This document shows, in pieces, positions 4,341 to 62,103 of a stretch of 64,000 nucleotides of DNA. The DNA comes from Cenococcum geophilum (taxonomy: Eukaryota), in the NCBI GenBank assembly GCA_050273025.1, contig CP158635.1, positions 3,286,001-3,350,000 of the forward strand. Reading direction: 5' to 3'. Both the position numbers and the translations under genes were made by a program. The notes beneath the pieces were generated by a model that did no database searches, was not told the DNA's origin, and saw only the letters and a list, made by a program, of their open reading frames with translations. How positions within the stretch are numbered: the stretch's first letter is position 1; every line of letters begins with the position of its first letter.

Positions 4341-5083
4341 GAATAAAATTATAGCTTACCGTTGCTTCCAGTATATCTGCACTGATGCATTTTCCGAGCG
4401 CTTGGACGGCAGAACCCTTCCAGCAGAGAAATTAGAGATCGTCACCAGAAACACATCATATCTTGAGTATCCAGTGCTGCATTGGATGGACCACGGAAGG
4501 ACCGCATCTCTTGGTATCACCGAGCTCTTCAATTTAGAAGAGCAATTCTTTAGACAACACTCCAGATTGAGGCCGATCTGGTTTCACGCGTACTGGAAGT
4601 CACGTCACAAATATCAAAAGAGCCATATCTCCTCACAGTTTTACCTCTTGCCGCGTATTCCGGGTTATTATGGTTAGCGGTAAAGCTGTTTCACAGTGGC
4701 TATGAAGCAGACGTCAATAAAATTGATTCTACAGGCCGCGTGCCACTGCACTGGGCAGCTATAGAAGGGCACGAGGCGATGGTCAAGCTGCTGCTCGACC
4801 ACAACGCCAACATCGACACGAAGGATGAGGATGAATGGGCGGCGCTACACTGGGCAGCAATTAGGGAGCATAGTGCGGTAGTCCAGCTGCTCCTAGAGAA
4901 TAGGGCAGACGTTGAAGCAGCAGACGGGAGTAACGTCGCTGATGCTGGCGGCACATTATGGGCGACCAGCGATAATGAACGTGCTTGTATAGAAGGGGGC
5001 GGATGTCGAGGTAGAAGGCGAATATGGGACGGCGCTGATAAGAGCTTCTATGGGAGGACACAAAGAGGTAGTGCAATCCTTGC
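4340..5083 (+). pseudogene. Ankyrin-repeat (NACHT/NLR-like) gene relic, part 1
   Basis: YRCFQYI...LEYPVLHWMDH resembles the post-NACHT helical region; ankyrin repeats PLHWAAIEGHEAMVKLLL and ALHWAAIREHSAVVQLLL; frameshifts; cut by the hAT insertion. Confidence 0.8.
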
Positions 5084-5459
5084 CAGGGTGGTTGTCAATA
5101 AGTCAATAACGCTTCAATCAATATTGATATTGATTGGTCAATATCAATCAATATTGATAATCTTGTCAATAATTGAATAACAGCTAAGCTACTCCAAGCT
5201 CATCATTTGTAATACCACTCCGTTTCCAATGTTTTGAACACTACTCTCTCAATATTTTCAGCTCCTAGTTGCGCCCTTTCCCATAAGATTATACGACGAG
5301 CTCCTAAAAAGACTCTCTCTGGCTCATCACTTATCGCTAGAATTAATAGAATATTAATTGCCATATACAATAATCTTAGCTAACGTTTTCTTTATTAATC
5401 TTAACACCACTATTTAAAAGCAGATAGCTTCCTAATATCGTACGGTTCTCCATTGCTAT

Positions 5460-5598
5460 CCCTTAACCCGTTAAAATTGGTCCTTATGTTATCGATAATA
5501 GTCCACCAATCGGATTAGCTGAATTTAATGGCCGCATAGTCTTGATTCCGGTGTTCGCGCACAGACCACGTCCTCTAGGGACCTTGACGGGTTAAGGG
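5460..5598. mobile_element. 139-bp MITE with CCCTTAAC termini and apparent AT TSD (piggyBac-like family)
   Basis: TIR cccttaacccgt(t/c)aa at both ends; flanks ctAT / ATag; internal motifs shared with 45160-45785 and 61659-61968. Confidence 0.85.
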
Positions 5599-5606
5599 AT
5601 AGTCTT

Positions 5607-7877
5607 TGTAACCGACTACCGGACCCTGCATATTGCCCTGTTTCACTAGCGTCAGCACTACCCTCGTATGTCTCGGATATGGTTGAAATGACTCATAGGC
5701 TTCGGAGTTAGGGGTCTACTTTCATGTATTTATACCACTTGATTTCCATAGATTTACAATTAAGTCGCTCGTTCAATTCCCACACACTGCAAAGCTTACA
5801 GTTATGAGCCCGGCCTGCCTACCGTACTGCATCTGATCTGTACATCCAGCGCTTACTAAGCAATCAATCTACTACGTTCAAGAAGTCACTACTTCTTCCA
5901 CCTTTGCAAGTGTCTTGAGCTTCTTCATTTACCAAACGGACGGACGATCGAACATCAATCACATCGAACATCGATCAAATCGAACATCGATTAAATTGAA
6001 CATCGAACACATCGATTGCATCGAACATCGATCGAAACGAACCCGACCGACCGTACGACCCTTGACCGTACGAACGACCGACCGACGAACGGACGAATCA
6101 AATCAAAGCTTCGGAACGTCAAAATAAGGTTCTGCCAAGACGCTATCTGGACCCTGACCTGGACCCTTACTGACCTGTCAAATTCCAAAAATGACGACCT
6201 CTACCGAATCAAAAATCAACCTTATCCTCAACCAGCCATCCGATTGGATTCAATGGTTCTTTATCATCCAAGACACAGCCAAAACTAACAAGGTATGGGA
6301 GTATATCGACCCATCCAAGAAGAAAGATAAGCTTCCAAAGCTAGAACCACCGCATCGACCTGTACCAGCGGACGTACTTCCGAATGCTACATCGATAGCT
6401 CAGCTAGACCAAATTAAGCTCACAGCCTACAATCAGCTCTACGCCGAATACAAAGACGATCTCCGCATACATGAGTAGCGAGAACAGGCTATAAACGGTA
6501 TCAGCAACTACATCGTTCGCTCTACATCGGTAGCCTACCTTCCCCTCATCGACGGCCTTGATACGGTACACGAACGGCTTCAAGCACTGAAGACTGCACT
6601 TGCCCCTACCACCTCAGGTCGAAAGCACGACGTCCTTCAATACACGGCTCTAAAAGCCTACGGTACAACACAAAGCATCGAAAAATGGTTAAACAGCTGG
6701 CGGAACATCTATAAACTTGCGGAACAGTTGGACCTACCAGACGTACAGGGATTTAGGCCACACTATGATTTCATTCGAGCAATCAAACCAATCTCTTCTA
6801 GCTTTGCAGGAGCACTAGAAGTAGATCTTATTCGCAAAGAACGGAAGGACGAAGAAGCCCCATCCATTATCGATCTAATTGAGGAATTCAAAGAGCACTA
6901 CCGCATGCAGCAATCGGCATCATCTTCTACCACTACGACTGCCAATCACTCTGCGTTTGCAACACTTCAAAATAATTCCCCTGTCTCTTCAGTAAAGACA
7001 TGCCTCTGTGGTGAAGAACACCTATTTCGGGAATGCCAATATCTAATTGAGAGCCTAAGACCCCATGGGTGGGTACCCAATGAGAAAATACAACAGCAAA
7101 TTGATGAAAAGCTCATGAGATATGAGAGACTTGCTGCTGCTGTTGAGAAAGCACAAAAGGAGGCTTCCCAGAGGATGCCTACTACCGCTACTAATGATGA
7201 AGAACCATTGAATCCAGTCAGATGGCTGGTTGAGGATGAGGTTGACTTTTGATTCGTTCGTGGTCGTCATTTTTAGAATTTGTGGGGTCAGGCAGGGTCC
7301 AATTGGTGTCTTGGCGAAAACCTTATTTTGACGTTCCGAACTTTTGATTTGATTCGTCCGTTCGTCGGTCGGTCGGTCGTACGGTCGGGGTCGTACGGTC
7401 AGTCGGGTTCGGTTCGATCGATGTTCGATGTATTCGATGTTCGACGTAATCGATGTTCGATGTTCGATTTGATCGATGTTCTATCGTCCGTCCGTTTGGT
7501 AAATGAAGAAGCTCAAGACACTTGCAAAGGTGGAAGAAGTGACTTCTTGAACGTAGTAGATTGATTGCTTAGTAAGCGCTGGATGTACAGATCAGATGCA
7601 GTACGGTAGGCAGGCCGGGCTCATAACTGTAAGCTTTGCAGTGTGTGGGAATTGAACGAGTGACTTAATTGTAAATCTATGGAAATTAAGTGGTATATAT
7701 ACATAAAAATGGGCAACAAAAAGATGATGACGATGATGCACAATTGCCGAGGTAGACAGCGCTTACAGTCGGCAATAGGTAATGGAAATAGGTAGTGAGA
7801 CATAGGTAGTGAGACATACGATGTCAAGAAACGGATGGTGAGTCATAAGGTAAGGCGAACCTCAGTAGTCGGTTACA
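5607..7877. mobile_element. Gag-only Copia-derived element with inverted LTRs (5607-5800 on +, 7628-7877 on -)
   Basis: Termini tgtaaccgactac / gtagtcggttaca; 5-bp TSD gtctt (5602-5606, 7878-7882); Copia-type PBS gttatgagccc inside both LTRs; ~500-bp inverted homology. Confidence 0.9.
6191..7252 (+). pseudogene. gag: Copia-type Gag, one reading frame with a single TAG at 6476-6478
   Basis: ORFs 6191-6478 and 6728-7252 share a frame and the gap is open; zinc-knuckle-like CLCGEEHLFREC; the last ~20 codons are the antisense of the inverted arm. Confidence 0.8.
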
Positions 7878-10800
7878 GTCTTCGTACTTATCCTAACTTA
7901 CTAGCCAAGCGTATATTCCTAGATCTTAAGCAATCCAATCAAATTTATTAAGATCTTAATCTTAAGAGGGTTTCCTTTCGTACAAGGAAGGAGTAAAAGG
8001 AGTAAGTACTTTTTCCTAATAAGACTTCTAAAGCTCTTTTACCTTTTATAGTATTAGCTTTTACTATTTAGCCTTTTAGTTTACGCGAATATACTTTATA
8101 TAACGGTTTAGATAAAGAATAAGGGCAGCTGTATAAAGAGGAGAGTTGTTAGTTTTACTATAGTACTTATTAAAGGTCTCCCATCCCTTCCTAATTTAGG
8201 AGCTAAACTCCTTATTAGAAGTATACTTAGACTACTATATAGTATTAGCCTTATCTAACCTAATTAAGAATTCTACTTATAAGGGCCTTTTTAAAGTGCT
8301 TAATAAGAATATCCATAGTAAAGAGTACTCTATTAATTATCGTGTAGTCTCTCTAAGTTTCTAAGGTTACTTAATAGAATAGTTAAAGGAATATCTTAGT
8401 CGTATAAAGAAATTCCCAGTCCTTTAGATAGAGATACTCCATCTAGAGTATAATAAAGTAGCTCTTTAAATATATATTAATGGCGCTTAATTATTATTTA
8501 GCTATAGCTAGTATCTAATACTAGCTATTCCATCTTATCCGGTTATTAAGTAGAATTATTCTTCCTACTAGATCTTTAAACTCCCTTATATAACTAGCCG
8601 AATTATAAATATATATAATATTATTATAAAGCTTTCTAAGTAGTCCTATAGCCTAAAAAGCTGCCCTTTACTTAGCTTCGCCTTCTACCTTCCCTTTTCC
8701 TTCTTATTTGTTATATAACTTAAGTTACTCTATCTCTATTAGGCCCTAAAAAAAAGCTTATATAGCTAAGTTAATAATATAGCTAGTATAGCAGATCTGT
8801 TACGGACGCTTTAAGTACAATATTACGACTACTTAGAGAAGAGTTAGAAGAAGCTAGTTGGTTAATCTAGGTATGGTTTAAGATAAAACTAATAGAGCTA
8901 TGTGACAAGGAATGGTAACTAAGGTCACGTGACGTAATCTATATAATCCGTAGGATCTATGTAATCTATAATAGAGTAGATAGAGCACACGTATATTACG
9001 TATAAGAAGGATTTTATAGGAGTACGGTTGTGTATTTAAGGACCCTTAGTCCCTACCTAGATAGTTCCTTCCTTATAGTAATTCTCAGAATACAATTAGA
9101 GTTAATCTATTAGGCAACTACTCCACTAGTTATTATTACGTTATTAACTTTAATTTATATTACCTATACACCTAGCCTAATAACGAGCCTATTGTAGTAC
9201 TTGCTATAAGGTTCCGTTATATAATTACTACCTAGTTACGGTATTAAATATAGAAAGTTAAATAACATACCACTAAAAGCAGCCACCATAACGCCATTAA
9301 CGGCGGCAACTACTTTAAGGTTAGGAGGTAACACTAGTATAGCAGATACTAACTTATAGCAACCTATAACGGTCGGATAATTATAAGAGATAGTTGACTA
9401 ATTAATAACAAATAATGCGGCGCTAGAAGAAAGGGTTAATAGGATAGAAGCAGTAAAGATTAAGCTACTATTAATCAAAAGGTTCTTAGGAGAAAGATTA
9501 AAGCTTAAAGGATTCCTTATGTAGATGCACTTTAAAGTTATATAAAAAGGGGTAAAGCTACTAACACCTATGGATTGAATAGCCTATGCGGGACTATTCC
9601 TATTAGGAAGGGCACTTAAGTAGTTTAAGCCTTACCTTATGGAAATATAGGTAAACGGAATAATAACTACTAATTAGGAGGTACGATTTATATTCTTAAG
9701 CTAGGAAGGGTTTATAGAGCAACTTATATAAATATTTGGAGACCTAGAGGCGGTAACTATAGCGAAAAGAAAACTCTAAGATATTACGCAATAAACCTTA
9801 GTAATTAAGTACATAATATAGTTCTAGACGTTAGCTATATAAGTTAAGTAAAATAATAAGGCGCTTATAGCATAGTATAAATAAGGACTTAAGGCTAAAG
9901 TTTAGGACGTAATTATCCTAATAGAAGATGCGGATACCCTAAGGGAGTTAATAGATTAAGTAATTAAGATTAATAATTAAATCTACCAAAGGGAACAGGC
10001 TAAGAGAGGTTAGGATAGAGTTTTATAGTTATATAAGGCGCAAAGTACGCAATAACTAAAGCCAAATTAGAAACTATGGTATGGCGTAGAGCTAATAGAC
10101 CTAAGTGGTACTAAGGAAGCCTATAAAAGATAAAGTAAGAAACTATAAAAACCTAGAGGTTAAGGATTTAGTAATTATAGGACTAAGGAGCAGAGGCTAA
10201 ATTAGGGATTTTAGCAGCAGAAGATGTTTAGGCGGACTCTATAGTAAAGTTAGTGGTTTAAAGATAGAGCTTATATAAATTATGGGAAATAGGGTTACTT
10301 TATAAGGGATTATAAAGACAGTTAGAGTTACTATATAATAAAGGGAACTAAACTAGTAGAAGATATATATATATAGAGGGATAATAGTATACTATGAGGA
10401 ACAAAGGAATATTTAATTAGAAGTTTTGCGTTCTATTATAACAACGCATACTAAATTTATAAAGACGCTAAGTATAGCGTAAGCTATTAGCTATAAGAGC
10501 TAAAATCCTTAGAATATAAGGGGATTAACAAACTATCGCGTAGATTAAATATTAAAGACGATAAGTTTAATATAGGCGAAACATTTATAAACAATAAGGT
10601 AATAAAGGCAGCTTACTAAGAGCGTGTAAACCTTAAAAAAGTTATATTAGAAGTAGAAACTAAGACCGCTATAGAGCAAGGTTTAGTAACGGGTATTATA
10701 ACACCGTTAGATACGGCATCTATTACTTTATAAAACAAAAGGAAGAGTATCTTAAAGAGATTAAGTAAGCAGACAACTGCTAGTGCTAATTTATTACTTA

Positions 10801-12979
10801 ATAAAGGTAAAAGGCCAAAGGCTTAAGATTCTTAAAATAAGATAAGAGATAACTAAGATTCTTAAGACTAGATAAGGCACACCTAAGGACCCATAACGGA
10901 CGAAAACCAATAGAGTAGGGTAATAGCTTAGTTTAAAGATATACAAATAAGCTTAGGATAGAGTTTCCCACAGGCATAAGATTCTTAAGACGAGATAAGT
11001 AAGATTTAAGACTTTTAAGACGAGATAAGAATACTTAAGCTTAGTTAAACTAAGGTAGGAGTAAAGCTTAAAATAGAAGTAAGCTAAGGATTAAGAATCC
11101 TATAGGACTAAGATTTCAAGACATAAATAAGGACTATTAATAAGATTAAGAAGCAGAAAGACTTTAAGAATATACTTATAAGATATAAAAAGAAAGAAAC
11201 TATAGAGGAATTTAGAGCGAGAATTACCTTATAGTAAGAATAGAAACTAAATAAGAGGTTTAGTATACTAGGTTATATAAAGGACAAAGCACCTATATAA
11301 AGAATTACTAATAGGCCTAAAACAGGCATACTAAGAGCTAAGTAGCTTACTAAACTGGAATAAAAAGAGAATTTAGGGATCCTAACTAGGTTTAAAGAAC
11401 AATATATAAAAGGCTATAAGTCACATTAAAGGAGCCTTAATTATAATATTAAAAGATCTAGAGAAGCAATTAGAGAACTAAAAAAGTAAGAGGTAAATCT
11501 TAGTACCTGCAAATAAAGTTACAACGCTTAGATTAATATAAGAAAGGTTTAAAATTAAGGATAAGAATAAGCTAAGAGTTAACCTAAAACACTAAGTATA
11601 CTATATATTAGCGTAGATCGCATATATAGATAATATATATAACATATAACTATAGAGTATCTAAAGATAAGAACCGGAAGTACCTAGTAAGGATATATTA
11701 GGTACTAGATAAGGCGAAGTATAGAAATGCTAAGTATATATATAGTTAGCACCTAGTAGAAGTGCAAAGCTAAGGGGATTTAGTACTTTAACTAGGAAGA
11801 TTCCTTATAGAAGAATGCCTAGATGGATAATAGTAGTGGGAATATCTAGAGAACACGTATTTATGGTATATTAAAGATAAAAAGCGAACTAAGTATTGGC
11901 TAAAAGTAGACTAAGTACTAATAGGATTAAGCAGCTAATAATTAGGAAAAGTAGAGGCCTATAAAACTAGAGGGAACTAGTAATAGAGTCTTAGACCTTT
12001 AAAGGAATTTAAGGACGACACCTAAATTTACAAGTTAAGTGGTAAGATTAATAGTTTAAAGTATTAATAGATAGTAAAGTAATAAAGAACTATATCTTAC
12101 TAATAGCAGTTAAAAGAATAGGATTACTATATAGGAAAAAGAAGCACCCTTACCTATTAGTAATAATTTTTAGAAGATCCGATAGCCTACAGGGGAGGTA
12201 TTATTAATCTTAAAATAGGACCTATTTAGTTAACTTTTAAAGGGAGATAAATCGAGATGTCTTTTAATATATTACTATTAGGGAATAATAAGGTAGTATT
12301 AGGAATACCTTAGTTACAGGAATATAATCCAAAGATTAATTAGATTACCGGTTAGGTTAATATTAGGGATACTTAACGGCGCAAGATATAATAATAAGCT
12401 AAGTTAGTATAGTACTAAGTAGGAGCGACCTATAAAGAAATAGAAAAAGGATTAAGTTATATACCAAAGAGATACTATAAGTATGGCAAGAAACTATAGT
12501 TACCAAAAAGTAAAAAGCTATTAGAGTATATAGTATAAGACTATAAGATAGAATTAGAACTAGGAATAAGTTTAAGGTTCTTTCTAATCTACAAGCTTAC
12601 TAAAGAGAAAGGTAGAGCATTAAAAGAGTTTATCTAAGAAAACTTATAAAAGGGATATATTAGACCATCGTAGTTATTAGTAGGTTATCCAGTACTATTT
12701 ATATTAAAGAAGAATAGCAAACTAAGGCTATATATTGACTATAGATAGTTAAACAGCATTACTAGAAAGGATAGGTATTCTTTACCCTTAATTAGCGAAA
12801 TCTAAAATAGGATAGGTAACGTATAAATCTTTATAAAGATAGATCTAAGATAGGCGTACTATTAGATTAGAATTAAGGAAGGCAATAAATAGAAGGCAGC
12901 CTTTAGGTTAAAGGAAGGACTATATAAACTATTAGTTATGCAATTCAGGCTTATAAACGCACTAGCAATATTCTAAAAG

Positions 12980-15900
12980 TGTCACAGTGCTGCAATGAAG
13001 TAGACTGAATAACTACGTTGTGGTATAAAGAGGAGAAGAAGGTAGAAAGGGGGTATTGTATATAAATAGTAGGGCCAGCCGCCAAGTCGCTAGTGGTGGG
13101 CTAGCTAATAGTAGGGAATAGTATAAGACAGTATGAAACAGTATACGTTAGGTTAGTGCCATGACAGTACTCCTCTCCCCTAGACGGTTTGGTCCCTAAA
13201 CTAAATAGATAACTTAAAAATAGGCAGTGTACGGGGTTGCCTATTTTCTACTATAAAGATATTAGTTCCGCTTACCGCCCTTAACTAAGCCAATGGCGAT
13301 TTTTCATACCGGGCATAGAAAATTCTAATTAGTTAGTTTAGTAAGTAAGGTCGGCAGAACTCCATACCGCCACCCAAATCAGTCCGTATAGCGTTTCTTG
13401 GCGAGAATTTGGCCAATTAGACAACTTTAACCGCCGGTTGAAGTTCTATAACATCTTAACCACTATAAATTTTAATGCGGTAATCGGCCGCAACCTTAGC
13501 GTGACTTTTCCTTATCTTATGCCCAGTCTAGGGGTCCTAGCTTCTCAGGGTATTACTTATAAAAGCGCTATACAGCTTATTTATAACCCTTTAGGTCTTC
13601 CTCTAGCTGCCAGGTTATATCCTTATAATATTTCCATTTAATCTTATAAGTTAGGCCCTAGGGGTCTTTGTCATATACATTAAGGATTTTCTTAAACTCC
13701 TATTTGTCTTCTATATTGCCGTTATTATCTCTCTCTACTACTCGTCCTTATACATTACGGCGCTCTACGGTATTAATATTTGCTTAGCTAGGGATCTCTT
13801 TAGCAGCCTAGAGGCGGACCTTAGATATATAAAAGGATTTATTTACTTAGATATAGTCCGGGAGGTCTACTATAACTACCTCTTAGTATACTGCGAGTAC
13901 GGGGTACAGGCCGTCCCATTTATTGTCCTATTTCTTCTTAGGTCTATTTATCTTTATATTTTTTAAGCTAACCATAACTATATTACCTTCGTAAAATAAC
14001 GCGCTCTTATCCCTACAGGTATTAGCATTATCTTTATAGCGTTACTATAAAATCCGGGCTAGGGCCTTAAGCTATATTAATATCCGCTTAAAGCGGTTGG
14101 CTATAGAGTCTGCGCAGAAGAACTCCTTCTTTGCTTATACTAATAGTATTAATAGGTGGGGGCTAGTAGGCTTAATTCCAAGGCAAGGGTTAAAGCTATA
14201 GTTTGTAAAAAAACAGGGAGATGCCTGTGCTCTTATTGACTTGGTTATTTATAGCAAACTTAGTAAGCGGCAGGTAGTTAACCTAGTCATCCTATATAAA
14301 GCTAATAAAAGCACAAAGGTATTTATTTATGGCGGCGTTAATAATTTTAGTTTAGCCGTCCGTTTCTAGGTGCTAGGCTAAGCTTAGTTACAAGGTTGTC
14401 TTAAGGCGTTTACTTAGTTATTGCCAGAAGTCGCTAATAAATTATATACCGCGATTAGAGATAATCGTGCTTAGTATACTATAGAGCTTATATATATTAT
14501 TAACAAAGCTATTAACTAACTCCTCTATTAAGAGTCCTGTTACTAGAACGAGGTGTTACATTTTAGTTAGGCGGTCTATAATAACAAGGATATATTTATA
14601 TGCCTTGCCGTGGCGTTAGTATACTAGTAGTATTATAATATAGTTAATTAAGATATCGGTTTACGGGTAGGTGGGTAATTCTAGTAGCTTTAGGAAACCA
14701 GGTGGGGCAGAACGGGGGGTCTTAGTGCGAAAGTATAGGGTATAGTCTTTAATAAAGGTAGCCGTAAACTGGGAGATTCCTAGCCACCAGTATATTTAGT
14801 TTAAGAGATTAAGAGTCTTAACCCGGCCAGGGTAACTAGCAGGGCCGCTACTATAAGAGTAATAGGTAACTTCTAGGCGGAGGTCTAGGGCGTTAGGGAC
14901 AAAGAGATATTAGCGGAAGTAGATCTGTCTATCAACAATACTATATTCTAACTTATTATAACAAAGTAATTTCCTAATTTTCTTTAGCTAACGGCGAGCT
15001 TTCCAATTATATAGGGCTGCTACTATATCTCTTACAAGTTCGTTCTCCTAGTATCCTAGCCAAATTAACTTGTCTAGTGACTTTTCAGCTATTTTAGGGT
15101 CTAGAGCGGCTATAAACTTCGCGTCATTAGAGTTACAGAACTTATATAGTAATTCTTCTAAGATTATAGGGTTAACTTTCTAGGGCGGTATAATGACTTG
15201 GGCTTAGTGGCGGAGGTGTTCATTATTAGTGTCCTTAGGCCTTATTCCTAGTAGCCAGCTTAGGGCGTTAGGGAGCGTGGCTTTGCTGCTAGGTCTATAT
15301 ATAATTATAAAGTTAAACTATAAAAGGAACTCTACCCACTAAACTTAGCACTAGTTTAGCTGCTTAGTAGTTATAAACGTCTATAGGTTTTTATAGTTGG
15401 TAATAATTTTAAACAGCTCCTCAGTCCCTTATAGCTTAGGACGCCATTCCTCTAAAGCCTTAATAATAGCTAGGAGTTCTTTATTATAGATCTTATAGTT
15501 ATATTTTAGCGCGGAGTACTTTGCGGAGAAAAATGCGACCGGTCTTAATTTTCCGTTATTATTATACTGGGAAAGGACTCCGCCGGAAGCCCAATTTAAT
15601 ACGTCTATCTTTACCACTATTTTCTTTATATAGTTATAGTATGCTAGTACTAGTGCTAAAGTAAAGGCTCCCTTAAGGGCCTTAAACGATTTAGCTTATT
15701 CTAGTCCCTATAGCCATCCGATATCCTTCTTTAGAAGTTTTATTATAAGTATAGCAATAGCAGAGTAGCCTTAGATAAATTATTAGTAGAAGTTTATAAA
15801 GCCAAGAAATTGTTATAGTTCTTTAATTAATATTAGGTCCTTCTATTCCTATAAGGCCTATATCTTCTTAGGGTCTATAGGTATGCTATTAGTTAAGATA

Positions 15901-18900
15901 ATTAAGCTAAGGTATTTTATTTTAGTAGAGTAGAACTTAGACTTATTAATATTAATCTAAAGTCTAGTATTGCTGAGTCTTTAGATAACTTCATTTATAT
16001 ACTTAGTATACTTAGCGCGTGTTTTAGAAAAGATAAGGATGTTATTAAGGTAGGCAGTATAGTAGTTGTTAAGGGCGTTATATAGAATATGGTTAATATA
16101 GTTCTAAAATATAGCGGGTGCGTTATAGAGGCTAAATAGTATAACTAGTATCTTATAGAGTCCGAACCGGGTAATAAATACTATAAGCTATTTATAGCCC
16201 TCTGTAATCCGGATCTGGTTAAACATAGTAATTATATTAAGTTTAGTAAAGTACTTAGTGCTATAAAGTGCGTTAAGTGTCTCGCGGATTAGTAGTAGTA
16301 GGTATTAATTCTTAATAGTAACTATATTTAGGCCTCGGTAGTTATAGTAGATTTATACACCGCCGCCAGGCTTAGCAGCGAGAAGGAGTGGTGCGGCAGC
16401 TAGTAAGGTTAATTTACAGATAAAACCCTTATCCAGCATCTTATTAATCCACTTCTTTACACACCTAAATTTAGTAGGTAAGAGTGGTCTATTTTTATAG
16501 TACGGGGCCTAGTTTCCAGGGGTAATCTTAATTTTATAGTCCCATAGTTAGTAAGGGGGCAGCTTATCTATATTCTTAGGGAGGAAGTGCTTAATATATT
16601 TACTAAACTCCTTTAGTAGGCGTTATAGAATATCTTCGCGGGTTAATCCTGGTTTGCCTTTTAGGAATTTTTTAATATTGGTGTTAACTATCTTCCGACA
16701 TAAAAGCTCGGGTTTAGTTTTTAGATTTATCTTAAGGAAGTCATAAAAATAGGGGGGGAGCGCTTTACGGGCTTCCTTTATTATATAGTCGCCTTTCACT
16801 AGCCAGCGGAAAGACCTTTTTAATAGGTTCGGTACTTCTATTAGGCCTATAGGCAGCTCTTTAAGCAGCTATCAGTACTTATCTTATTTAACTAGTTCTA
16901 CTAACTCCGCTATATAGATCCTTATTACCTTTACGTCTTTTTATTTATAGAACTGGGTAAAATTAATAGCACAGGTGTATTTAATATTGTCTAGGTTAGG
17001 GCGTATCTAGCTCTCTAGTGCTACAGCTGGGCTAATATAGCTTAGTTAGCCTAGGGGGGCAAAAACAAGGCGGCGGCTCTGTACGGTACGCGTAGGAGAC
17101 AGGTATAAGGTTAGGCGTTACGGTGGCGCGGTTTCTATCATTTAGGTCTTAGTAGTTCTATAGCTAGTCCTTACTATAACGCGAGCTGTAGTGTGTATAT
17201 ATGGTATATAGCTTAGTTTTAGGTATTAGGCTAGGCGGCCAAGGTTTAAATAGTGCCTAGGTTAGGGTTAGTTTTTTAGTAGTGGCGGTATAAAGCGGAC
17301 CTTCTTCCTTAGTCTCGGCAGGGCTAGCTAGCCTATTATTTTGGTCTTAAGTACTAGGTTAGTCCAGTCTTCTACTATCTTATTTCTTTACAGCTATACG
17401 GGCTCCCCTTTATTAGGAACGTCTTTTACTATTAGGGCTTTATATATAGTCCTAGGCACTAGGCTTAGTAGTGCTAAGTGTCTATATAGGGCGTCCCTGC
17501 TAACGTCGGCTATCCCCCACAGGAGGTAGTGCCTAGAGTAGTAGTCTAAGTTAAAGCGGATCTTGAGTTTCCTAAAGCTAGGACGGGGCTCGTGCTTTTA
17601 AAGCTAGGGTATACCTAGGATAATTAGGGTAGCGGGCGAGAGTTTAGTAATAAAAAAGAGTATGGCTTTAGTATAGAGGCCGATTGATATTTAGGTGGTA
17701 AAGTAGTCCATAATAAGCGAAGTTAGGATACTATCTGCGAGGCATAGTAGCCTAGGTGCCAGCAGCTTCTTAGTTATAACATTATACTTTTTTATAATAG
17801 ACTCTGCGTCGGTAAATGCTATTACAGTACTACCGGAGTCTACTAGGCTTACTATATTAATATAAACTTGGGGGTATAGGTTACGTAATAAGGAGAGTTA
17901 GGTTTAAATAAGGATTAATTTCTTATTACTGTTTGCTAATCTAAGATTAAATAGCAGTTTACTAATAGAAAGAACTAATTAATCTAGTAATAGGGACCTA
18001 ATCTTCTTATCTTCCTCCTTATATAGTTTAGACCCTTAGGCGTAACTTAGTCTAAAGGTTTACCTTTTAATAACTAGGGTACGGGGCTGTTTTGGCAAGG
18101 CGGTCTAGTATCTATCTAGCTAGCGGTGTCTGTCTCTGTTTTAGTTAGGGTATAGGAAGACAATACCTTACCAACGACGTAGCCGTGTTCGTATTCGCTA
18201 GCGCGAAGTCGCTAATACTAGGCGTTGTTAACGGGTTGGGCTCCTATATAGGGTATAGTTTAGAGTAACTAAGCCGTAGGGTTAAAGGGGGGGGGTTATC
18301 CGCTGCGGCTATAATAGGCTCCGCGGTTGCCGTGTCTATAATAGACTCTACGGTCGCCGCGTCCGCGGTTATTTATTTGCGTTGTTTAATAGGGTGGCAT
18401 TAGGACTAGGTTTGCTATCTTAGCGGGGTTATAGGCATCCTTCTAGTGGCTAGGCAGGCTATAGGTAAGGCATAGTCTATTATTAACGCGGCGCTTACGC
18501 TCCGTGTTTAAGATTCTATTAAGGTCTATAGGTTCTTTAGTTACTACTAGGGTTAGGGTTAATATAGGGGCAGGGGCTTAGGTAGGTAGGCGGTAGTTAG
18601 TGTTCTTCTTAAGGTTAGCTTGGTGTGTATAGTTTATAAGGTTTTTAGTAAACATATCTATCTGCTTACTCTAACCTATATAGTTACTATTATTAATTTT
18701 ATAGGCTAGTCCAAGTACCAGCTCTTCTATCTTTAGAGAGATGAACTTTTAAAGTAGGTCTACCTTCTATTTATCTGTCTTTTTAGCGCAGATTATTAGC
18801 TTATTAAGCTCTCCCTTCTAGAACTAGTAATTACGCTCGCCTTAAGAGAAATAGTTAAGCTTATTCTTTATAACCTAGGTTATATTAAGGACCTCATAAT

Positions 18901-19895
18901 AGGCAGTAAGGTCTTTAAGCATATCTTCCTTAGTAGGCCATTTCCACGCAGATATATTGTTTAGGTTCTTATATATAAGCTCTAGGCCCTACTTAATAAA
19001 CTTATAGACCTTATCCTTTAGCATGTCCGAGATATAAAGGATCTAGGACTAAACTATGTTAAAGTAGTCCTAGTCCCGGTTAAAGACTCCCTTAATCTTA
19101 ATATACTAGGTCTTAAAATTAGCTTATCGTTCTAGCAGGGTGCCTTTTCCGCTAAATATTAGCGGGTCTTTAGATCTCCGTTTTTTCTTCTAGGTTACTA
19201 CCGTTATTATAGGGGTTAATTATTTTAGAACGGTAATAGTCTCTACCTAGGAGTTAATAGTTCCTATCTAGGAAGTAATAAGGGTACTAAGGTTTTTATT
19301 AGCTTTTTTATTGGTAGTATTTATGTTATATATGCACTATAGTCCTACTTTAATGTTGTTAAGGAACTTATTAGTATAGTTAATAAGAGTAAGGTAAGCT
19401 TTGCTAGGCTTAAAGGTCTTAGGGTATAGTAGGGAGCGGCGGATTATCTACGCAATATTAGGGTATATCTTTATAAATAGGTCTACAAAAACGTTATAGG
19501 GGTTCTAGGTTTCGGCTATTTTGGCGTCATTAGTGTCGCCTATCTAAGCGCTAGGTAAAAACTAAGGATTATTTTAGAACTATGCTAGGGATATATTAGT
19601 TTTAGCAGAGGCGCGCACAGGTTGCGATTGCTCTAGGGTAAAGGTTAATTAGCTAGGGTATAGGGAATTAGTAATCACAATAGGGCGTAAATTAAAGATA
19701 CCATAAACTGTTACAGTGCTGTAATAAAGTAGACTAAATAACTACGTTATAGTATAAAGAGGGGAAGAAGGTAGAAAGGGGGTATTGTATATAAATAGTA
19801 GGGCCGGCCGCTAAGTCGCTAGTAGTAGGCCAGCCAATAATAGGGAATAGTACGAGATAGTATAAAACAGTATGCGTTAGGTCAGTGCCGTGACA
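12980..19895 (-). mobile_element. Ty3/Gypsy chromovirus-type element B (RIP-mutated), inserted in the RT of element A
   Basis: 187-bp LTRs 12980-13166 and 19709-19895 (TG..CA); TSD aaaag; PPT ggggagaggagtac on -; RNase H remnant (GGVLSQ...LRPVAFFS...YNKELLAIIKALEEWRP, 15429-15617); chromodomain remnant ~13530-13730. Confidence 0.94.
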
Positions 19896-20477
19896 AAAAG
19901 CATATTAATAATGTATTAGGAGAACACTTAGATGAATTTATTATAGTATATCTTAATAATATTATTATCTACTTAATAATTAAGGAAGAGCACAGAGAAT
20001 ATATTAAATAGGTCTTAAAAAGACTATAAAAAGAATAAATACTAGTAGCAATTAAGAAATACAAGTTCTTTACTAGGAAGACCAATTTTATTAAATTTAT
20101 TATTAAACTAGGCCAACTTAGTATAGATCTAAAAAAGATTAAGGTTATAGTAAATTAGTAAGAACTAGAAAATATTATATAATTAAAATCGTTTCTAGGG
20201 TTTTGCAATTACTGTAGAAGGTTTATAGCGTAATAGTTAAAAAATATTAAACTATTTACGCGATTAATAAAGAAAGAAGAACTATAGGTATAGGGAAAGG
20301 AATAGTAAAAGTTATTTAAAAAGGTTAAAGAGTTGTTTACCTAGGAGCTAGTTCTTAAAATCTATTAACTACGTCAGGAAAAAATTTACCAGCATTTTTG
20401 CAGCATTTGGCAGCATTTGGCGGCCAAATGCGCATTCCGCGCACTACAACGTGTAGCGTATGGTATCGACTAAGGTG

Positions 20478-20785
20478 CGGCATACTGCCGTATTTAATAA
20501 TGCGGTGCGGCATACTGCTGTATTTAATAATGCGATGCAGCATACTGCCGCATACTGCTATATTCAACAACGCACTGCCGCATACTGCTGTATTCAACAA
20601 CGCAGTGCAGCTAACTGCCGTATTTAACAATGCAGTGCAGCTAATTGCGCATTTTGCACTTAATGCGCAATTAATATATAATGCCCTCCTCGTTCATTCT
20701 GTACATAATGCCTTCCTCGTGCATTCTGTACATAATGCCTTCCTCGTGCATTCTGTACATAATGCCCTCCTCGCGCATTCTATAT
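20478..20785 (+). repeat. 30-bp and 27-bp minisatellite arrays
   Basis: Degenerate gcatactgccgtatttaataatgcggtgcg units followed by cattctgtacataatgccttcctcgtg units. Confidence 0.8.
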
Positions 20786-20885
20786 ATCTTGCTCTTCCTA
20801 CGCACTTAATAGTATTTGCTTGGTTTATATAGTTGGTGCAAAATTATATTATTTTAGATAATTTAATATATAGCGACGGTGCTCT

Positions 20886-20997
20886 TCTACCTGCCTACCT
20901 ACCGACCTACCTGCCTGCCTGCCTACCTGCCTGCCTGCCTGCCTACCTGCCTGCCTGCCTACCTACCTACCTACCTGCCTACCTGCCTGCCTGCTTG

Positions 20998-21028
<31 letters not shown>

Positions 21029-21150
21029 ATCTACCTACCTACCTACCTACCTACCTGCCTACCCGCCTGCCTGCCTGCCTGCTTGCCTACCCGTCCGCCC
21101 GTCTGTCTGTCTATCTGTCTGTCTGTCTATCTGTCTGTCTGTCTGTCTAT
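20886..21150 (+). repeat. (CCTG/CCTA)n then (CTGT)n tetranucleotide microsatellite
   Basis: Directly visible. Confidence 0.95.
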
Positions 21151-21259
21151 ACCCACCCATCTGTGCCTACCTATCTATGCCTACCCGTCTATGTTACCTT
21201 AATTCGATCGATCGATCGAATCGTTTATCGTGTTCGCTGGCTGGTCGTTCGAACGGTTG

Positions 21260-21460
21260 TCGTGTGGCTCTGGCGACGGTCGTGTGGCGATGACGACGGT
21301 CGTCTAGCTCTGGCGACGGTCGTCTGGCTCTGACGGTCGTCCAGCTCTGGCGACGGTCATCTGGCTCCGGCGACGGTCGTCTAGCTCTGACGACGGTCGT
21401 CTGGCTCTGACGACGGTCGTCTGGCTCTGACGGTCGTCTAGCTCCGGCGACGGTCGTCTG
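21260..21460 (+). repeat. 17-20-bp minisatellite (ctggctctg[gc]gacggtcgt)
   Basis: About ten degenerate copies visible. Confidence 0.85.
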
Positions 21461-21599
21461 CTGGCTGTCGTTCTGGTGTCTTCCTAGGTAGGGAGGATGT
21501 AAGGAAGGGTAAAAAATGAGGTGGCTACCTAGGTGTATATAGGGGGTATACTTGGCAGAGGCACGTGTAGAGGCTATCGGGAATATAGCGGGGACCCGA

Positions 21600-22090
21600 T
21601 GCGGAGCTTCGTGTAAAGCCTCCGTACGCAGAGCTTCGCGCAGAGCCTTGTGCAGAGCCTCTGTACGCAGAGCTTTATGTAGAGCCTTGTGTAGAGCTTT
21701 GTGCAGAGCTTCGCGTAGAGCTTCGTGCAGAGCTTCGTGTAGAGCTTCGTGCAGAGCTTCGTGTAGAGCTTCGTGCAGAGCTTCGTGTAGAGCTTCGTGC
21801 AGAGCTTCGTGCAGAGCTTCGTGCAGAACTTCGTGTAGAACTTCGTGCAGAGCTTCGTGCAGAGCTTCGTGCAGAACTTCGTGTAGAACTTCGTGCAGAG
21901 CTTCGTGCAGAGCTTCGTGCAGAGCTTCGTGTAGAACTTCGTGCAGAGCTTCGTGCAGAGCTTCGTGTAGAACTTCGTGCAGAGCTTCGTGCAGAGCTTC
22001 GTGCAGAACTTCGTGTAGAACTTCGTGTAGAACTTCGTGCAGAGCTTCGTGTAGAGCTTTGTGCAGAACTTCGTGCAGAGCTTCGTACAG
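21600..22090 (+). repeat. 12-bp minisatellite gYagaRcttcgt, about 40 copies
   Basis: Directly visible; the same unit recurs at ~61147-61200. Confidence 0.95.
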
Positions 22091-24249
22091 CATTTAATTT
22101 TACTTTTCTGCCATTTTAGCATTTTCTAGCATTTAGCAGCTAAATGCTAATACTTAATTATAAATGCAGCTAAATGCTAGTACTTAGTAATAAATGCCGC
22201 ATTTAGCTGCTAAATGCTAGAAAATGCTAAAATGGCAGAAAAGTAAAATCAGATGCTGGTAAATTTTTTCCTGACGTAGAACTAGAGACGGTTATAGAAA
22301 CAAATATATTAGACTTTATGCTAGGGGCATACTTTATATAGAAACATTAAGATAGATAGCACCTAATAGTATACTATAGTCGAAAGATAACACTATTAAA
22401 GTTAAACTATAACATCTATAACAAGGAGTTATTAGTTATAGTTATAGCGTTAAAGGAATAAAGAGTATTCTTATAAGGTACAGAAAAACTATTTATAGTT
22501 AAAACGGATTATAAAAACCTAATAGGATTCCTAATAATAAAGGAGCTTAACCAAAGATAGGTTAGATAGGTAGAGATACTTATAGAATACTATTTTAAGA
22601 TTTAGTACACTAAGGGTACAGATAATATATAAGCAGATGCTCTAAGCCGAAAAGCTAAACTATAAAATAACGAAAAGCTATTAGGGGCTTTACTGTAAAA
22701 AGACACAGATGGATTAATTAGGTATAATTATCCAAAAATTATAATAACTTAAGAGGAACTAAACAGAGTTTATAAGTTACTAGAAAGCTTTTAGGTATAA
22801 AAGATCTTTAAGGTATAGCTAGAAGAATAGTTAGAATATCTAGGAGAAGAAATACTATATAAACATAGAGAGGTAAAGTATATCCTAAATAGTATAGCAA
22901 AACACTTTATGGAAGATTTCTATAAGGGATTAATTTAAGGATATAACGGAGCCATAGGCTTAGTGTTAAGACTTTAAGAGGAGTATATTATTAATGGAAT
23001 CTAGAGCTTAACGCGGAAAGTTACTAAGGAATATCTAGATTGCTAAAGAAATAAACTAATAAGACATAAGCCATATAGAGGGCTATAACCTATTAAAATA
23101 CCAGAGAGACTATAGGAGGTTATATTATAGAACTTTATTATTAAGTTACTAAAGTTAAAAAACCCTATTACCAGATAAGATTATAACGCGATCTTAGTAA
23201 TAGTAAATAAGCTTATAAAGTAGGGATACTTTATAGTATATATAGAAGAAATATCAGCAGAAGATATCGCTAGAATCTATATTAAGGAAGTGTTTATAAG
23301 ATATAGAGTACTAAGTAAAATTATATCGGATAGAGATCTAAGATTCATAGTAGTATTTTAGGAAGTATTCTTAGTGGAGTAAGGAGTTAGAGTAGTAACT
23401 TCTACTATATATTATCCGCAGACAGACGGTTAAATAGAAAGACTAAATTAAATACTAGAGCAGTATCTAAGATACTATATTAATTACGCACAGAATAATT
23501 AGGTATTATTATTACTAGTTATATAGTTTATATATAACGCAATACCACAAGAAAAAATAGACATATTACTATTTAAGGCAAATTATAGATATAAGCTAAG
23601 AATATCATTATTACTACGGCAAGTAAAGAAAATAAGTAGTATAGTTAAAGAAAGAATAAAGATACTAATAAATCTTTATATAGACCTTATAGAATTAATA
23701 AAGAAAGTATAGGAAAGAATAAAAAAGTACTATAATGCTAAGAGATCTAAGGGACTAGATCTTAAGGAGGGAGATAAAGTATAGCTACTATATAAAAATT
23801 TTAAGAGTTAACAACTAAGTAAGAAGTTAAACTATATTAGACTAGGACCTTTTAAAATTAAGTAAAAGATTTTACTAGTTACGTTTAAATTAAACCTACT
23901 AGCTAAAATAAAAATCTACCCTATATAGTATATCGCGATACTAAAACTAGTATATAGGAATATTAAGCCACCGGTTTATAAAGCAGACACGTATAAAGGT
24001 TAAAAAGAGGATAAATAGTAAGTTTTAAAGATTATTAGCTATAAGGATATTAATAATAAAATATAGTATAAGATAAAGTAAATAGGCTATAATAAGACTA
24101 CCTAGAAACTACTAGAGAACCTAAAAAACGCTATAGGAAAGGTATAGAAGTATTAGAAGAGATTAGGTTAGGTAATATTAATAAAAAAGGATCGCAAAAA
24201 AATAAGTCACCTAAGGGGGACTTAAGAAGAGTGGTTACTAAACTACTTA

Positions 24250-24803
24250 GATCTATTTCCTTCTTAGTTAAAAAAGAGTCCGTTTTTTTATTACTAAGTT
24301 TCTATAAACCCTATTTTATAAGCTTCTACTCCTTAAAATAAACCTTTTTATAAACCTTTTTAAGACGGATTGGTTAAGTAGACGCCGCAAGATAAGACTT
24401 AAGAGCCTATTACTAAGTATTAGCAACCTCCTATTTTACGTTATAAGAACGGCGTAACTCTACTAGAGTAATAGATAGTTTATTATCTAGCTGTGTAGCA
24501 GCAGATTAAATATAAAACCCTAAGATAAATTAATTAGGGAACTAGACGACTATTAAAAATAATAAGTTATATATATTTAGCATTAGAAATAGAGCGAATA
24601 TTATAGGATAAATAAATATTTACTTTAATGCACTTTAAATAAAAGGACGGTTATTATAAAGATGGGTTCGCCAACGTAATATAAACTAACCCTTCTTTTA
24701 AATAGCAAGAATATAGAGATAGTATAATCTCACTAAGAGACAATATCGCAGCAATAGTGCAAACACGACGAGCGGTTAAAGAAAAAGGAATTATTTTAGG
24801 TAT
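24250..24803 (-). pseudogene. Antisense accessory ORF of Gypsy A with a putative six-cysteine Zn-cluster-like motif
   Basis: Reads ..AILSLSEIILSLYSCYLKEGLVYITLANPSL**PSFYLKCIKVNIYLSYNIRS; reversing RIP changes (TAT>TGT etc.) gives C-x2-C-x6-C-x13-C-x2-C-x8-C. Confidence 0.55.
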
Positions 24804-25822
24804 AATAAGTAACGATATTAACTAAATTAATTAGACGGATATTACACCTCTAGTAAACAACTTAGAGATATTAGGGATCTTTAAGGACGAAGATAAAGAG
24901 GAGGGAGATAATGTTATAGACGCTTTAAGTACAATATTATGACTACTTAGAGAAGAGTTAAAAGAAGCTAGTTAGTTAATTTAGGTATAGTCTAGGATAG
25001 AACTAATAGAGCTATATAACGAGGAATAGTAACTAAGGTCACGTAATATAATCTATATAATATATAGGATCTATATAATCCGTAACAAAGCAGATAGAGT
25101 ATACGTATATTATGTATAAGAAGAATTTTATAGAAGTACGGTTGTGTATTTAAGGACCCTTAGTCCCTACCTAAATAGTTCCTTCCTTATAGTAATTCTT
25201 AAAATATAATTAGAGTTAATTTATTAGGCAACCACTCTACTAGTTATTATTACGTTGTTAACTTTAATTTACATTACCTATACACCTAGCCTAATAACAA
25301 GCCTATTGTAATACTTGCTATAAGGTTCCGTTATAAGATCTATTAAAACGTAGAATTTTACTTAACTTTCTCTTTCTTTTAGAGATAATTTACTACTATA
25401 CGGCAAAGCATATTATTTAAAGTAGCGTTATTACAAATAATAGAACTAAGCTTTTATATAATTCTATAGTCTTAAAGCACTAAAAAAAGAGTAGTAAATT
25501 GCTCTTCTCTATTATAGTTTACTACTGTATAAAGGGTAAGGAGTGCTTTAATAAGCTTCTCCTAGTATCGGTTAATAAAGTGCGCGTAAATCCTAAGAAG
25601 AAGAAGCTAGTTTAAAGAGGTCTAAATATTAAGCAAAATATATATACTTAATAATGCTAATTAATGCTTCTTTCATACAATATCTTTTTAGAATTACTAT
25701 AATTTCTTAATCTTCTTTATAACCTTAGAGTGTGCTATAATAATCTAGCCTTCTACTTCTAGATTTAGAACTTTTTAAAAAACTTAGGTATTAAGCTATT
25801 ATGTTTAACCTATAGATATTAC

Positions 25823-31911: not shown

Positions 31912-32384
31912 ATTACTTTAGTATAGAGCTGTTTTAGTTAATTAAGCGCTACCAACTAAACTTAGCCTAGAGTTAACTTAACCTTAATTCTATACTTACT
32001 CTTAAGATAAGATTAGAAATTATTACTAGCTAGAGCACTATACGGTGGATCCGTACAGTATTTATAGTAAAAAATGCGGTTTTTACCCCAGAATTCTAGC
32101 TCTAAGCTAGCCTAGGGTAGACAAGCGTGCTCCGATATTTTAACAGCTAAGCGCTTTCTAGTCGTTTTCAACTTCGTTTTAATTAATTCCTAGGTTAATA
32201 AAGGCGCAAGAAAAGATGAATCTGCCTCAGAAGCCATTTGTTATACGAATTTATAGACAATAGAAAATTTTTGCGGGTTATTGGTAATAGCGTCAATCAA
32301 TATTGATCTTATCGATACTTATCGATAACGATATTGATTAGTAAGATTGATAATAAAATTATTGACAACCACGCTGATCCTTGC

Positions 32385-33594: not shown

Positions 33595-33836
33595 TGTCGG
33601 ACGGACAAGTCACTGAGAAGAACTCTGTCGATTGAAGCTGGCTCTACATGGCGTTGGGGCAAAAGACTGACGACGACGATTTGGAACTATTACTCAATCG
33701 CCACCAGGTCGACATTGCCACTTAGTCGGTGATAGGTAATGAATAGGTAATAGAAAATAGATAGTAAGACATACGATGGCAAGAAACAGGGTGTGAGTCA
33801 TAAGGTGGTACTTGACAGTGACCTCAACGTTCGACA
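33595..33836 (-). mobile_element. Solo LTR (242 bp)
   Basis: Termini tgtcggacg..cgttcgaca; 5-bp TSD tatgg; interior homologous to 7700-7852 (orientation inferred from that match). Confidence 0.85.
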
Positions 33837-43404: not shown

Positions 43405-44517
43405 CTACAACCTCGCTCCCTCACCTTCCAAAAACTCCTTGCTGAATGGCTGATCAATGTACCCGTCCTTCGCCTTAGCATTGTAGAAAGTATCCCGGTT
43501 ATACGGCGTCAGCGGAATACCCTTCATGATCTTGAACGGTAGATCCGGATTCGAGATATATAGTCTCCCAAACACAACCGCGACGTCCTTATCCTTAAAG
43601 TCTTCATCCACCGTCTTCCTCGCCGAATCCGGCTTGAAGCCTCCAGCCAGCAGGACAGGCGAACGCCCGCCCCACGCCTCGACCGCGAAGTCAACCTGAT
43701 CGGAGCTCTCGATATCCAAAAGGCCCGATATGCGACTAGTGACGACATGTAGGTATGCCAGCCCGATCTCCTTCAGCCCTTTAACTAGGTACGTGAACTG
43801 CGGCACTGGGTCCGCCATCCGCATGCCCTGGAACGTGCTCCACGGACTCAGCCGGATGGCCGCCTTATCACTGCCGACAGCCTTGACCACCGCCTTCGTA
43901 ACCTCCAGCGCGAACCGGGCCCTGTTCTCGATGCTCCCGCCCCATCTATCCGTCCGCTTGTTCACGTTATCCTGGATGAACTGGTCAACGAGATACCCAT
44001 TCGCGCCGTGGATCTCCACGCCATCGAACCCAGCCTCCACCGCGCGCTTCGCCGCCGTCGCATAGTCCGCCACATACTGCCAGATCTCCTCCTCCGTCAG
44101 CTCGCGCGGCGCCGGTGCGTCGTCGGACAGCGGTGTCGCGCTCGAACTGACCAGATCCCCCGTCCCCTCGGCTGCCTTGACCTTTGGATTCGCCGTCCGC
44201 CCCAGCGCCCATAGCTGCATGAAGATGTGCGAGCCCTTTGCGTGCACCGCGTCCGTGACTTCCTTCCACGCTTGCAGCTGCTCGGTGTTCCAGAGGCCGG
44301 GCACGTTGGGGTAGCCGGAGGCGGCGGGCGAGATGCAGGTCGCTTCGGTGATGAGCAGCGTGCCGGGGACGGCGGCGCGCTGCGCGTAGTAGTCTTTCAC
44401 GAAGGGCAAGGGGATGTGGGCGTCGGAGGCGCGGAAGCGGGTTAGTGGGGCCAGGACGAGGCGGTGTTGGAGGGTCAAGGGGCCGATTTGGAGGGGGGTG
44501 AAGAGTTTGGACGTCAT
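43405..44517 (-). CDS. Old Yellow Enzyme family NADH:flavin oxidoreductase (370 aa, intronless)
   Basis: LAPLTRFRA, YYAQRA, GFDGVEIHGANGYLVDQF, RTDRWGGSIENRARF, SNPDLP motifs. Confidence 0.96.
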   Translation of the reverse strand: MTSKLFTPLQIGPLTLQHRLVLAPLTRFRASDAHIPLPFVKDYYAQRAAVPGTLLITEATCISPAASGYPNVPGLWNTEQLQAWKEVTDAVHAKGSHIFMQLWALGRTANPKVKAAEGTGDLVSSSATPLSDDAPAPRELTEEEIWQYVADYATAAKRAVEAGFDGVEIHGANGYLVDQFIQDNVNKRTDRWGGSIENRARFALEVTKAVVKAVGSDKAAIRLSPWSTFQGMRMADPVPQFTYLVKGLKEIGLAYLHVVTSRISGLLDIESSDQVDFAVEAWGGRSPVLLAGGFKPDSARKTVDEDFKDKDVAVVFGRLYISNPDLPFKIMKGIPLTPYNRDTFYNAKAKDGYIDQPFSKEFLEGEGARL

Positions 44518-45159
44518 GGTTTTGGTTTGGAAAATGATTCCGTTAGGATTCTGAGGGGCTCGCGGTAGGATCTCGGCGGATTGGTGTCTTTTCGGGTTGA
44601 TTTAAAGTGGATTGCGTCGAGTTTCTTAAAGTCAGTTGGAGGTCAATTGCAGATGAGATTGTGTGAATGGAGAGTGAAGCTGCAATTGGATTATCTCCAG
44701 TGGGAGATATGATGTTTAAGTAGGGGAAGCATTGATTAGGACGTGGTGTTTGGTTTGTGCTTGGTGCTTAGTTATGGATAATTTGAAATGCTAAGTCGTC
44801 ATTTTGCTCTTATAGATAGTACGAATTACAAAGCCCGGCTTGTACGACGGAGGGATTTCTAAGAGTAATCTCCGCTTTCTTACTAATTCCCTACTTCGGA
44901 GAGGGTTTAAATTGGCTTAATAAAAGACCATTTCCGACTGTGCAACTCTGCTTATCGTGTCTTTAGGCTGTTCGCTGCTTGAGGTAAAAAAATCAAGCAC
45001 GCAACCGGCTGTGTCATCATCTTTCTGGTGCTCTTATTATTTCGGAATTATCGGCTTTTCGATTAATAATGTGAATTTAAGAGGACTGTTTTCTGGTTTG
45101 ACAGATCCGGCTTCTCGGCTCTGGTGTAGGAAGTAATGAGCCATTATTCCTTCATCTAT

Positions 45160-61968: not shown

Positions 61969-62103
61969 ATATATAAGGCTCTAAGTTAAAGCTTTTAAAC
62001 TCGGGTCAAAGTTTACGTAGGGTACCTAACGTTCCGCATGTTAATAATTAGACGTTAACTAAGGGACGAGATATGGCAGTTAAAAAGGTAAGTTTTGGGT
62101 ATA

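Follow-up and report, generated by a model that had tools for sequence, protein, structure and literature searches.

The Mu killer locus of maize, whose silencing activity has been proven genetically, is an inverted duplication that a genomic rearrangement produced from a DNA transposon. Here we describe a retroelement insertion in a 64,000-nt stretch of the Cenococcum geophilum genome (assembly GCA_050273025.1, contig CP158635.1, positions 3,286,001 to 3,350,000 of the forward strand), referred to below as the window and numbered from its first letter. The insertion, termed the unit (5607-7877), carries two long terminal repeats (LTRs) of Ty1/copia type in inverted orientation. In common with Mu killer it consists of an inverted, duplicated 5' transposon part whose hairpin transcript would be homologous to an active family; it differs in being a retroelement, in being bounded by a target-site duplication (TSD) and in that any silencing function is putative. 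We conclude that 5607-7877 is a rearranged, dead-end Ty1/copia derivative, a variant of known complex insertions and no new class.

Several described arrangements resemble the unit in part. The copia complexes of Sabot and Schulman (2007) are likewise two-parent chimeras that were inserted by integrase and are flanked by a single 5-bp TSD, but they are tandems of the form LTR-core-LTR-core-LTR with one U3 and one U5 end (PMC1950507). The unit also combines two parents between one pair of TSDs, whereas its parts are inverted, both of its ends are U3, the 3' halves are missing and it does not form a tandem around a common internal LTR; the word 'inverted' does not occur in that paper. The tandems of McGurk and Barbash (2018) similarly place two LTR elements in opposition at one site, but keep both elements whole with the target motif between them (PMC5932611), whereas the centre of the unit is gone and only the outer TSDs are present. 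An antisense self-nested insertion of the plant Ty1/copia element EVD resembles the unit in its antisense LTRs and is a proposed trigger of silencing through hairpin or convergent transcription; it represents nesting of the usual kind, flanked by a TSD of its own within the host copy, whereas the unit has no second TSD and two U3 ends (PMC11624286, where Mu killer is also named). The TR-GAG elements of plants are short, gag-only LTR elements, and the left parent of the unit comes from a lineage whose open reading frame (ORF) ends after gag; TR-GAG elements have direct terminal repeats and replicate (PMC4350172), whereas the LTRs of the unit are inverted, which places it outside that group. Elements of the DIRS-1 type share inverted terminal repeats with the unit, but encode a tyrosine recombinase, contain an internal complementary region and insert without forming a TSD. 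The unit has no such ORF, a 5-bp TSD is present and its relatives carry a DDE integrase.

Ends, target site and host of the unit

Reading of the sequence at 5000-8500, together with a repeat scan, delimited a single unit of 2,271 bp. Its left U3 tip (5607-5619) is the reverse complement of 7865-7877 at 13/13 positions. A perfect 5-bp TSD, GTCTT, flanks the unit (5602-5606 and 7878-7882, 5/5) and is present as one pair only; with the borders fixed, 5 bp would match by chance in ~1/1024 cases. The repeat scan found no internal LTR within the unit, and there is no direct-orientation LTR pair with a polypurine tract (PPT): the LTRs are inverted, and the unit contains neither a 3' LTR nor a PPT.

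The host is a hAT transposase gene degraded by repeat-induced point mutation (RIP), and its continuity was assessed by aligning three full-length hAT transposases to the window. All three were collinear across the unit with no residue missing. The relatives read ...YED directly followed by YSNGEPYD, whereas the window reads ...KYED, the unit, DY, a 148-bp element resembling a miniature inverted-repeat transposable element (MITE), and then SNGEPYD. The insertion therefore caused no loss of hAT coding sequence, and only 5 bp were duplicated. A six-frame Pfam search of the flanks returned only a sub-threshold match to the hAT dimerisation domain (E = 0.0036). Because the unit has two U3 ends, a single TSD and a collinear host, these results point to integrase insertion of a DNA molecule with two U3 tips. 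RIP indices were 0.79 / 1.02 in the unit compared to 1.74 / 0.36 in the right flank, and the unit is the youngest layer of the transposon nest in which it lies. The first-pass annotation of this DNA is borne out on each of these points, having described a gag-only retroelement unit with inverted LTRs, U3 sequence at both outer ends, a single gtctt duplication, a hAT frame continuous across the insertion and less RIP mutation than in the surroundings; gag is indeed the sole ORF retained.

The two LTRs have in common the 13-bp tip and all sequence from the TATA-like box onward, and differ in the U3 bodies between. In the left LTR, lineage-specific U3 extends up to 5719 and the shared R/U5 starts at 5720, with the TATA-like box at 5727-5734. 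The LTR sequence, TGTAAC...CTTACA, has the TG...CA ends that, together with a 5-bp TSD, are expected of Ty1/copia elements. Directly inside each LTR lies an identical block resembling a primer-binding site (PBS). In the left block, 5801-5812 is complementary at 12/12 positions to the anticodon arm (stem and loop) of initiator tRNA-Met, with E. coli metZ as a stand-in for the fungal tRNA, and the same holds for the right block. With this bacterial stand-in, the blocks are of the half-tRNA primer type found in Ty1/copia elements; copia and Ty5 are primed by a half tRNA cut in the anticodon loop (PMC5371799).

BLAST of the unit against the window returned the unit itself, its inverted self-match and one 85-nt match at 33724-33806, and hence no second family copy within the window. 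The 85-nt match (81% identity) belongs to a fragment at ~33660-33810, downstream of an ankyrin-repeat region, which resembles the U3 body of the right-arm LTR at 79% column identity and has neither an LTR tip nor R/U5. It may be what is left of an old LTR, or else the right-arm U3 variant may derive from it.

Two parental lineages and their joint

The inverted arms (5720-6267 versus 7708-7194) were 87.6% identical over 549 columns in BLAST, with sub-blocks of up to 97% over 176 nt in the repeat scan. They are separated by 33 substitutions and 8 indels. Since 15 of the 33 substitutions are transversions (the other 18 are transitions) and indels are present in addition, RIP was rejected as the source of the differences. 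The leaders also point to different relatives, which were compared as protein sequences and are given here by number. The 22 residues just before the ATG of the right arm are equal to those of P0007 (22/22), while the left arm carries a duplicated leader segment that is present in P0001, P0016 and P0031 and has the leader variant of the P0001/P0031 type. The 16-nt leader repeats number ~5 on the left (5936-6042) and ~3 on the right (7407-7484). The arms thus derive from two sublineages of one family, and not from RIP or drift; the differing U3 bodies, the differences along the arms and the leader variants all agree with the earlier suggestion that the arms come from two variants.

The Gag of the window has 1,436 relatives in a representative library and 40 close relatives, most at 70-91% identity, and a Pfam search with it returned no family. 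All of the long relatives scanned (5/5) carry Pol_BBD, then rve and/or SH3_retrovirus, then RVT_2, and it is this protease-integrase-RVT_2 order that identifies the Gag as Ty1/copia. Compared to ten close relatives, it has one stop (TAG 6476-6478), the sole stop as first annotated, and one codon is also missing. The unit has no pol sequence (protease, integrase, reverse transcriptase/RNase H), as the stretch from 7201 to the right arm holds no further ORF. Two C-terminal forms exist in the family: in seven relatives the ORF stops 5-7 codons after ...MPTTA, and in P0006 and P0007 it continues into protease. The left arm of the unit has the first form.

The short-gag lineage (P0002, P0004, P0061, P0062, P0009, P0213 and P0214) has an intact ORF of ~340 aa that stops after ...MPTTA. 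It is close to the gag-protease lineage (P0006, P0007) over the first ~260 residues, and the zinc-knuckle tails of the two are strongly diverged; over its whole length the window Gag is 68-71% identical to P0006 and P0007. Sequence comparison suggests that the short-gag lineage is recombinant, possibly a gag-only, non-autonomous fungal copia lineage. The C-terminus of P0001 was also considered as a reading into a direct 3' LTR, and this was dropped as there was no significant match (best E = 2.3).

At 7193/7194 the left LTR-PBS-leader-gag meets the start of a minus-strand LTR-PBS-leader-gag. The left Gag follows P0001 to ...TATNDE (7201) and thereafter diverges from all relatives, and homology to the gag start of the right arm begins at 7194. 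Positions 7194-7201 are therefore assignable to both parents, from which we infer an 8-nt microhomology, ATGATGAA, at the joint. The protein P0212 spans the junction and equals the product of the window ORF 6728-7249 in 173/173 residues after the start codon. The contig that encodes it is 1,236 nt long and belongs to a different read-assembly collection, and misassembly is disfavoured because this contig encodes an identical junction ORF. P0212 supports the junction but is no second, diverged copy. The length of its contig was also considered as evidence; a break by the assembler where the arms share 31-mers predicts 1,295 nt, close in magnitude to the 1,236 nt observed but unequal to it, and the length was not used. 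The features of the unit and of its immediate host are collected in Table 1.

Table 1. Positions of the parts of the inverted unit, its target-site duplications and the adjoining host sequence.
Feature	Positions	Strand	Remarks
TSD GTCTT, left copy	5602-5606		
Left LTR	5607-5800	+	194 bp, TG...CA; U3 tip 5607-5619
Left PBS-like block	5801-5833	+	33 nt directly inside LTR
Left leader	5834-6190	+	16-nt tandem repeats 5936-6042
Ty1/copia Gag, short-gag lineage	6191-7201	+	ends 4-6 codons short of the native stop of relatives
Junction overlap ATGATGAA	7194-7201		8 nt attributable to either parent
Second gag start	7194-7270	-	ATG 7270-7268; 25 codons + 2 nt
Right leader	7271-7594	-	repeat number differs; pre-ATG segment like P0007
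Right PBS-like block	7595-7627	-	identical to left block
Right LTR	7628-7877	-	250 bp; U3 tip 7877-7865 the same 13 bp, U3 body different
TSD GTCTT, right copy	7878-7882		
MITE-like element	5456-5603		148 bp, 16-bp perfect terminal inverted repeats, in hAT ORF
hAT residues 290-463	8799-8281	-	
hAT residues 464 to ~580	8231-7878	-	
hAT residues 582-652	5457-5242	-	
hAT residues 654-670	5240-5190	-	

Routes of formation

The reading we favour, to which we give about an even chance, is that the unit was inserted recently, in a single integrase-type event, as an aberrant cDNA in which the 5' portions of two Ty1/copia elements were fused tail to tail. In LTR-element replication the 5'-LTR side of the cDNA is the first to become duplex after plus-strand transfer; truncated intermediates would therefore retain just the parts that are seen in the unit. 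Two partly double-stranded cDNAs from different lineages would have been joined at the 8-nt microhomology, either by a plus-strand template switch in one particle, with the nascent plus strand moving onto the plus strand of the second cDNA, or by end joining. Integrase would then have brought the identical 13-bp U3 tips of this dimer together and inserted it, giving the 5-bp duplication. Integrases are able to pair two like ends in vitro. There are two precedents, each of them tandem and not inverted: copia complex insertions with one TSD, which have been ascribed to abnormal template switching (PMC1950507), and multimers of Ty1 cDNA, which are able to integrate (PMC7524711).

Several points weigh against this one-step insertion. 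No in vivo report of an integrase using two U3 ends was found, and a literature search, weak for subscription journals, brought up no LTR element described as having two U3 ends and a flanking TSD. The evidence comes from one locus, at which the steps of formation are reconstructed. The left limit of the microhomology is set by three residues that are common to one relative only, P0001, and the contig encoding P0212 may derive from the same reads as the window assembly. Finally, the same structure would result if two elements had inserted independently at one 5-bp target and the centre had then been deleted, and the sequence is compatible with both histories.

This two-step history, the chief alternative, is possible, though we consider it doubtful. 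Element A on the plus strand and element B on the minus strand would have inserted, sequentially or simultaneously, into the same 5-bp target, giving an intermediate TSD-A-TSD-B(inverted)-TSD with the two 3' LTRs as a central near-palindrome, from which a microhomology-mediated deletion, running from position 7201 of A up to B codon 26, would have removed the centre. The 8-nt junction overlap is compatible with such a deletion, and inverted tandems of LTR elements in Drosophila have in part been ascribed to double insertion (PMC5932611). The insertion site abuts the 148-bp MITE-like element with its 16-bp terminal inverted repeats, and LTR elements are reported to target palindromes often (PMC6911290). 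Antisense self-nesting is also known in the family: P0030 comprises sense gag, an LTR U5 end and then antisense gag, and was dropped as a candidate snap-back junction since the intervening U5 end identifies it as a nested antisense insertion. The two-step history, however, needs exact reuse of 5 bp as well as a deletion, two or three events compared to one integration. GTCTT is non-palindromic, there is no sign of site specificity in the family, and no 3' LTR remnant, PPT or middle TSD is left in the unit. A related scheme, a nested insertion followed by two deletions, was rejected by reasoning alone as unparsimonious, as it needs a precise deletion between two TGTAA termini.

The first-pass annotation had offered two alternatives, an aberrant template-switch product joined by integrase through two U3 ends and a propagating non-autonomous class of inverted-LTR elements. 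The former is favoured by the U3 tips and the single TSD; the latter is not, as the searches turned up no diverged copy with this junction, and the pair was incomplete in leaving out double insertion into the same 5 bp with central deletion. A propagating class, copied with the help of autonomous elements, is scarcely credible. The junction tail of the window was present in 0/62 family proteins. When the final 58 residues of the junction ORF were used for scoring, 8 of 9 candidates matched. Seven of these matches end natively; the one match with the tail (1/8), P0212, is letter-identical to the window. Standard strand transfers in LTR replication require a PPT and a direct 3' R, and the unit, which has neither, is therefore unable to retrotranspose and a dead-end product. 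What speaks for such a class is that two other direct sense-to-antisense gag junctions occur in family copies located elsewhere, each in two proteins. In tblastn onto the unit, P0022 and P0031 run in sense gag to ~6844 and then antisense from 6547, and P0026 and P0058 in sense to ~6800 and then antisense from 6719. Both junctions lie at other positions and neither is that of the window, and the two proteins of a pair may stem from a single locus or be variants of assembly.

In these direct joints the antisense arm was incompatible with the sense arm at 4/47 and 1/27 codons, respectively. P0031 also has a deletion from the leader to codon 88 at a repeated KDDL-coding motif. Inverted rearrangements thus recur in the family, with joints that are silent on mechanism, and the family looks prone to rearrangements of the microhomology type. 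A wider proposal, that Ty1/copia replication itself can make U3-to-U3 inverted cDNA dimers which integrase inserts in one step, so that replication errors of the element give rise to hairpin loci against its own family, is in our view unlikely; it would also account for the other sense-to-antisense gag junctions.

It is very improbable that the structure is an artefact of assembly, or that it reflects unrelated rearrangements between which 5 bp match by chance. Inverted repeats are a known cause of assembly errors; however, a fold-back read chimera would give identical arms, and those of the unit are non-identical, with differing U3 bodies and 8 indels. The junction ORF is reproduced exactly on the contig from the other collection, and there is agreement among the TSD, the matching 13-bp tips and the collinearity of the hAT host.

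Transposon nest, predicted hairpin and meaning

The host hAT element as a whole spans 5084-32376, 27.3 kb through nested insertions, with minus-strand transposase pieces at 32237-31959, 25783-25346, 8799-7878 and 5457-5190. Its 19-bp terminal inverted repeats (5084-5102 and 32358-32376) match at 17/19 positions and are flanked by an 8-bp TSD, ATCCTTGC, at 5076-5083 and 32377-32384. The element splits an ankyrin-repeat ORF, which runs from 4554 to 5083 and resumes after 32384. Between hAT codons 288 and 290 lies a RIP-degraded LTR element (or nest) of ~16.5 kb at 8798-25335, whose LTR matches (8798-9221 and 24912-25335, 424 bp) are 90% identical and which is flanked by the TSD AGATC at 8793-8797 and 25336-25340. 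The MITE-like element, which the first-pass annotation had not recorded, separates the unit from the hAT codons that follow and lies directly at the insertion site. A longer relative of it is present at 61655-61990 in opposite orientation, with terminal repeats that carry matching changes on both sides. Two candidate empty-site paralogs were rejected. The match at 61655-62083 is confined to the MITE-like element and stops at its end, and the RIP-tolerant alignment to 1513-2538, which extends across the insertion site, scored 130 compared to 90-110 for shuffles, at 57% identity, and was taken as noise. Ordinary fungal genes were recorded to the right of the nest at 21197-22093 (minus strand), 43408-44601, 48474-49499, 51024-53795 and 55855-59282. 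Among those identified by Pfam are a NACHT N-terminal helical domain, an old-yellow-enzyme type oxidoreductase, an HLH factor, a bromodomain protein, short-chain dehydrogenases and a fungal-specific transcription factor.

The strand 5760-7668 is predicted to fold with a minimum free energy of -1029 kcal/mol compared to -510 +/- 6 for 5 shuffles, as a foldable inverted transposon duplication of the Mu killer type would. The predicted fold contains 452 inter-arm pairs with perfect helices of 130, 55, 34, 26, 25 and 22 bp, in agreement with the ~500-bp stem first proposed. A read-through transcript would form a stem of ~515-548 nt from R, U5, PBS, leader and gag start, the region common to the family. 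The two LTR promoters are convergent, with TATA-like boxes in both LTRs. The unit is therefore a plausible candidate source of double-stranded RNA (dsRNA).

A silencer at work, whichever way the unit arose, is quite unlikely on present grounds; in this model the locus is transcribed, Dicer cuts the hairpin or convergent transcripts, and the resulting small RNAs act in trans to repress the family, as Mu killer does for MuDR. The predicted stem with its long helices and the TATA-like boxes retained in both LTRs would suit such a role, and for EVD the silencing triggers put forward are hairpins formed by LTRs in antisense arrangement and convergent transcription from LTRs (PMC11624286). Set against this, the locus lies in RIP-degraded, probably heterochromatic DNA.

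If the unit arose in one step, the integrase of an LTR element accepts two U3 ends in vivo, and aberrant reverse-transcription products can seed inverted-repeat loci. This would give a simple origin for the hairpin triggers of retroelement RNA silencing, a step that is still sought (PMC11624286). Should Ty1/copia replication itself generate such dimers, retroelements would have their own counterpart of Mu killer, formed without any subsequent rearrangement of the genome. If instead the unit arose in two steps, the locus is an ordinary decay product of the transposon nest. By either route, it is a clean test case for small-RNA and long-read data, being young, not RIP-mutated and precisely bounded.

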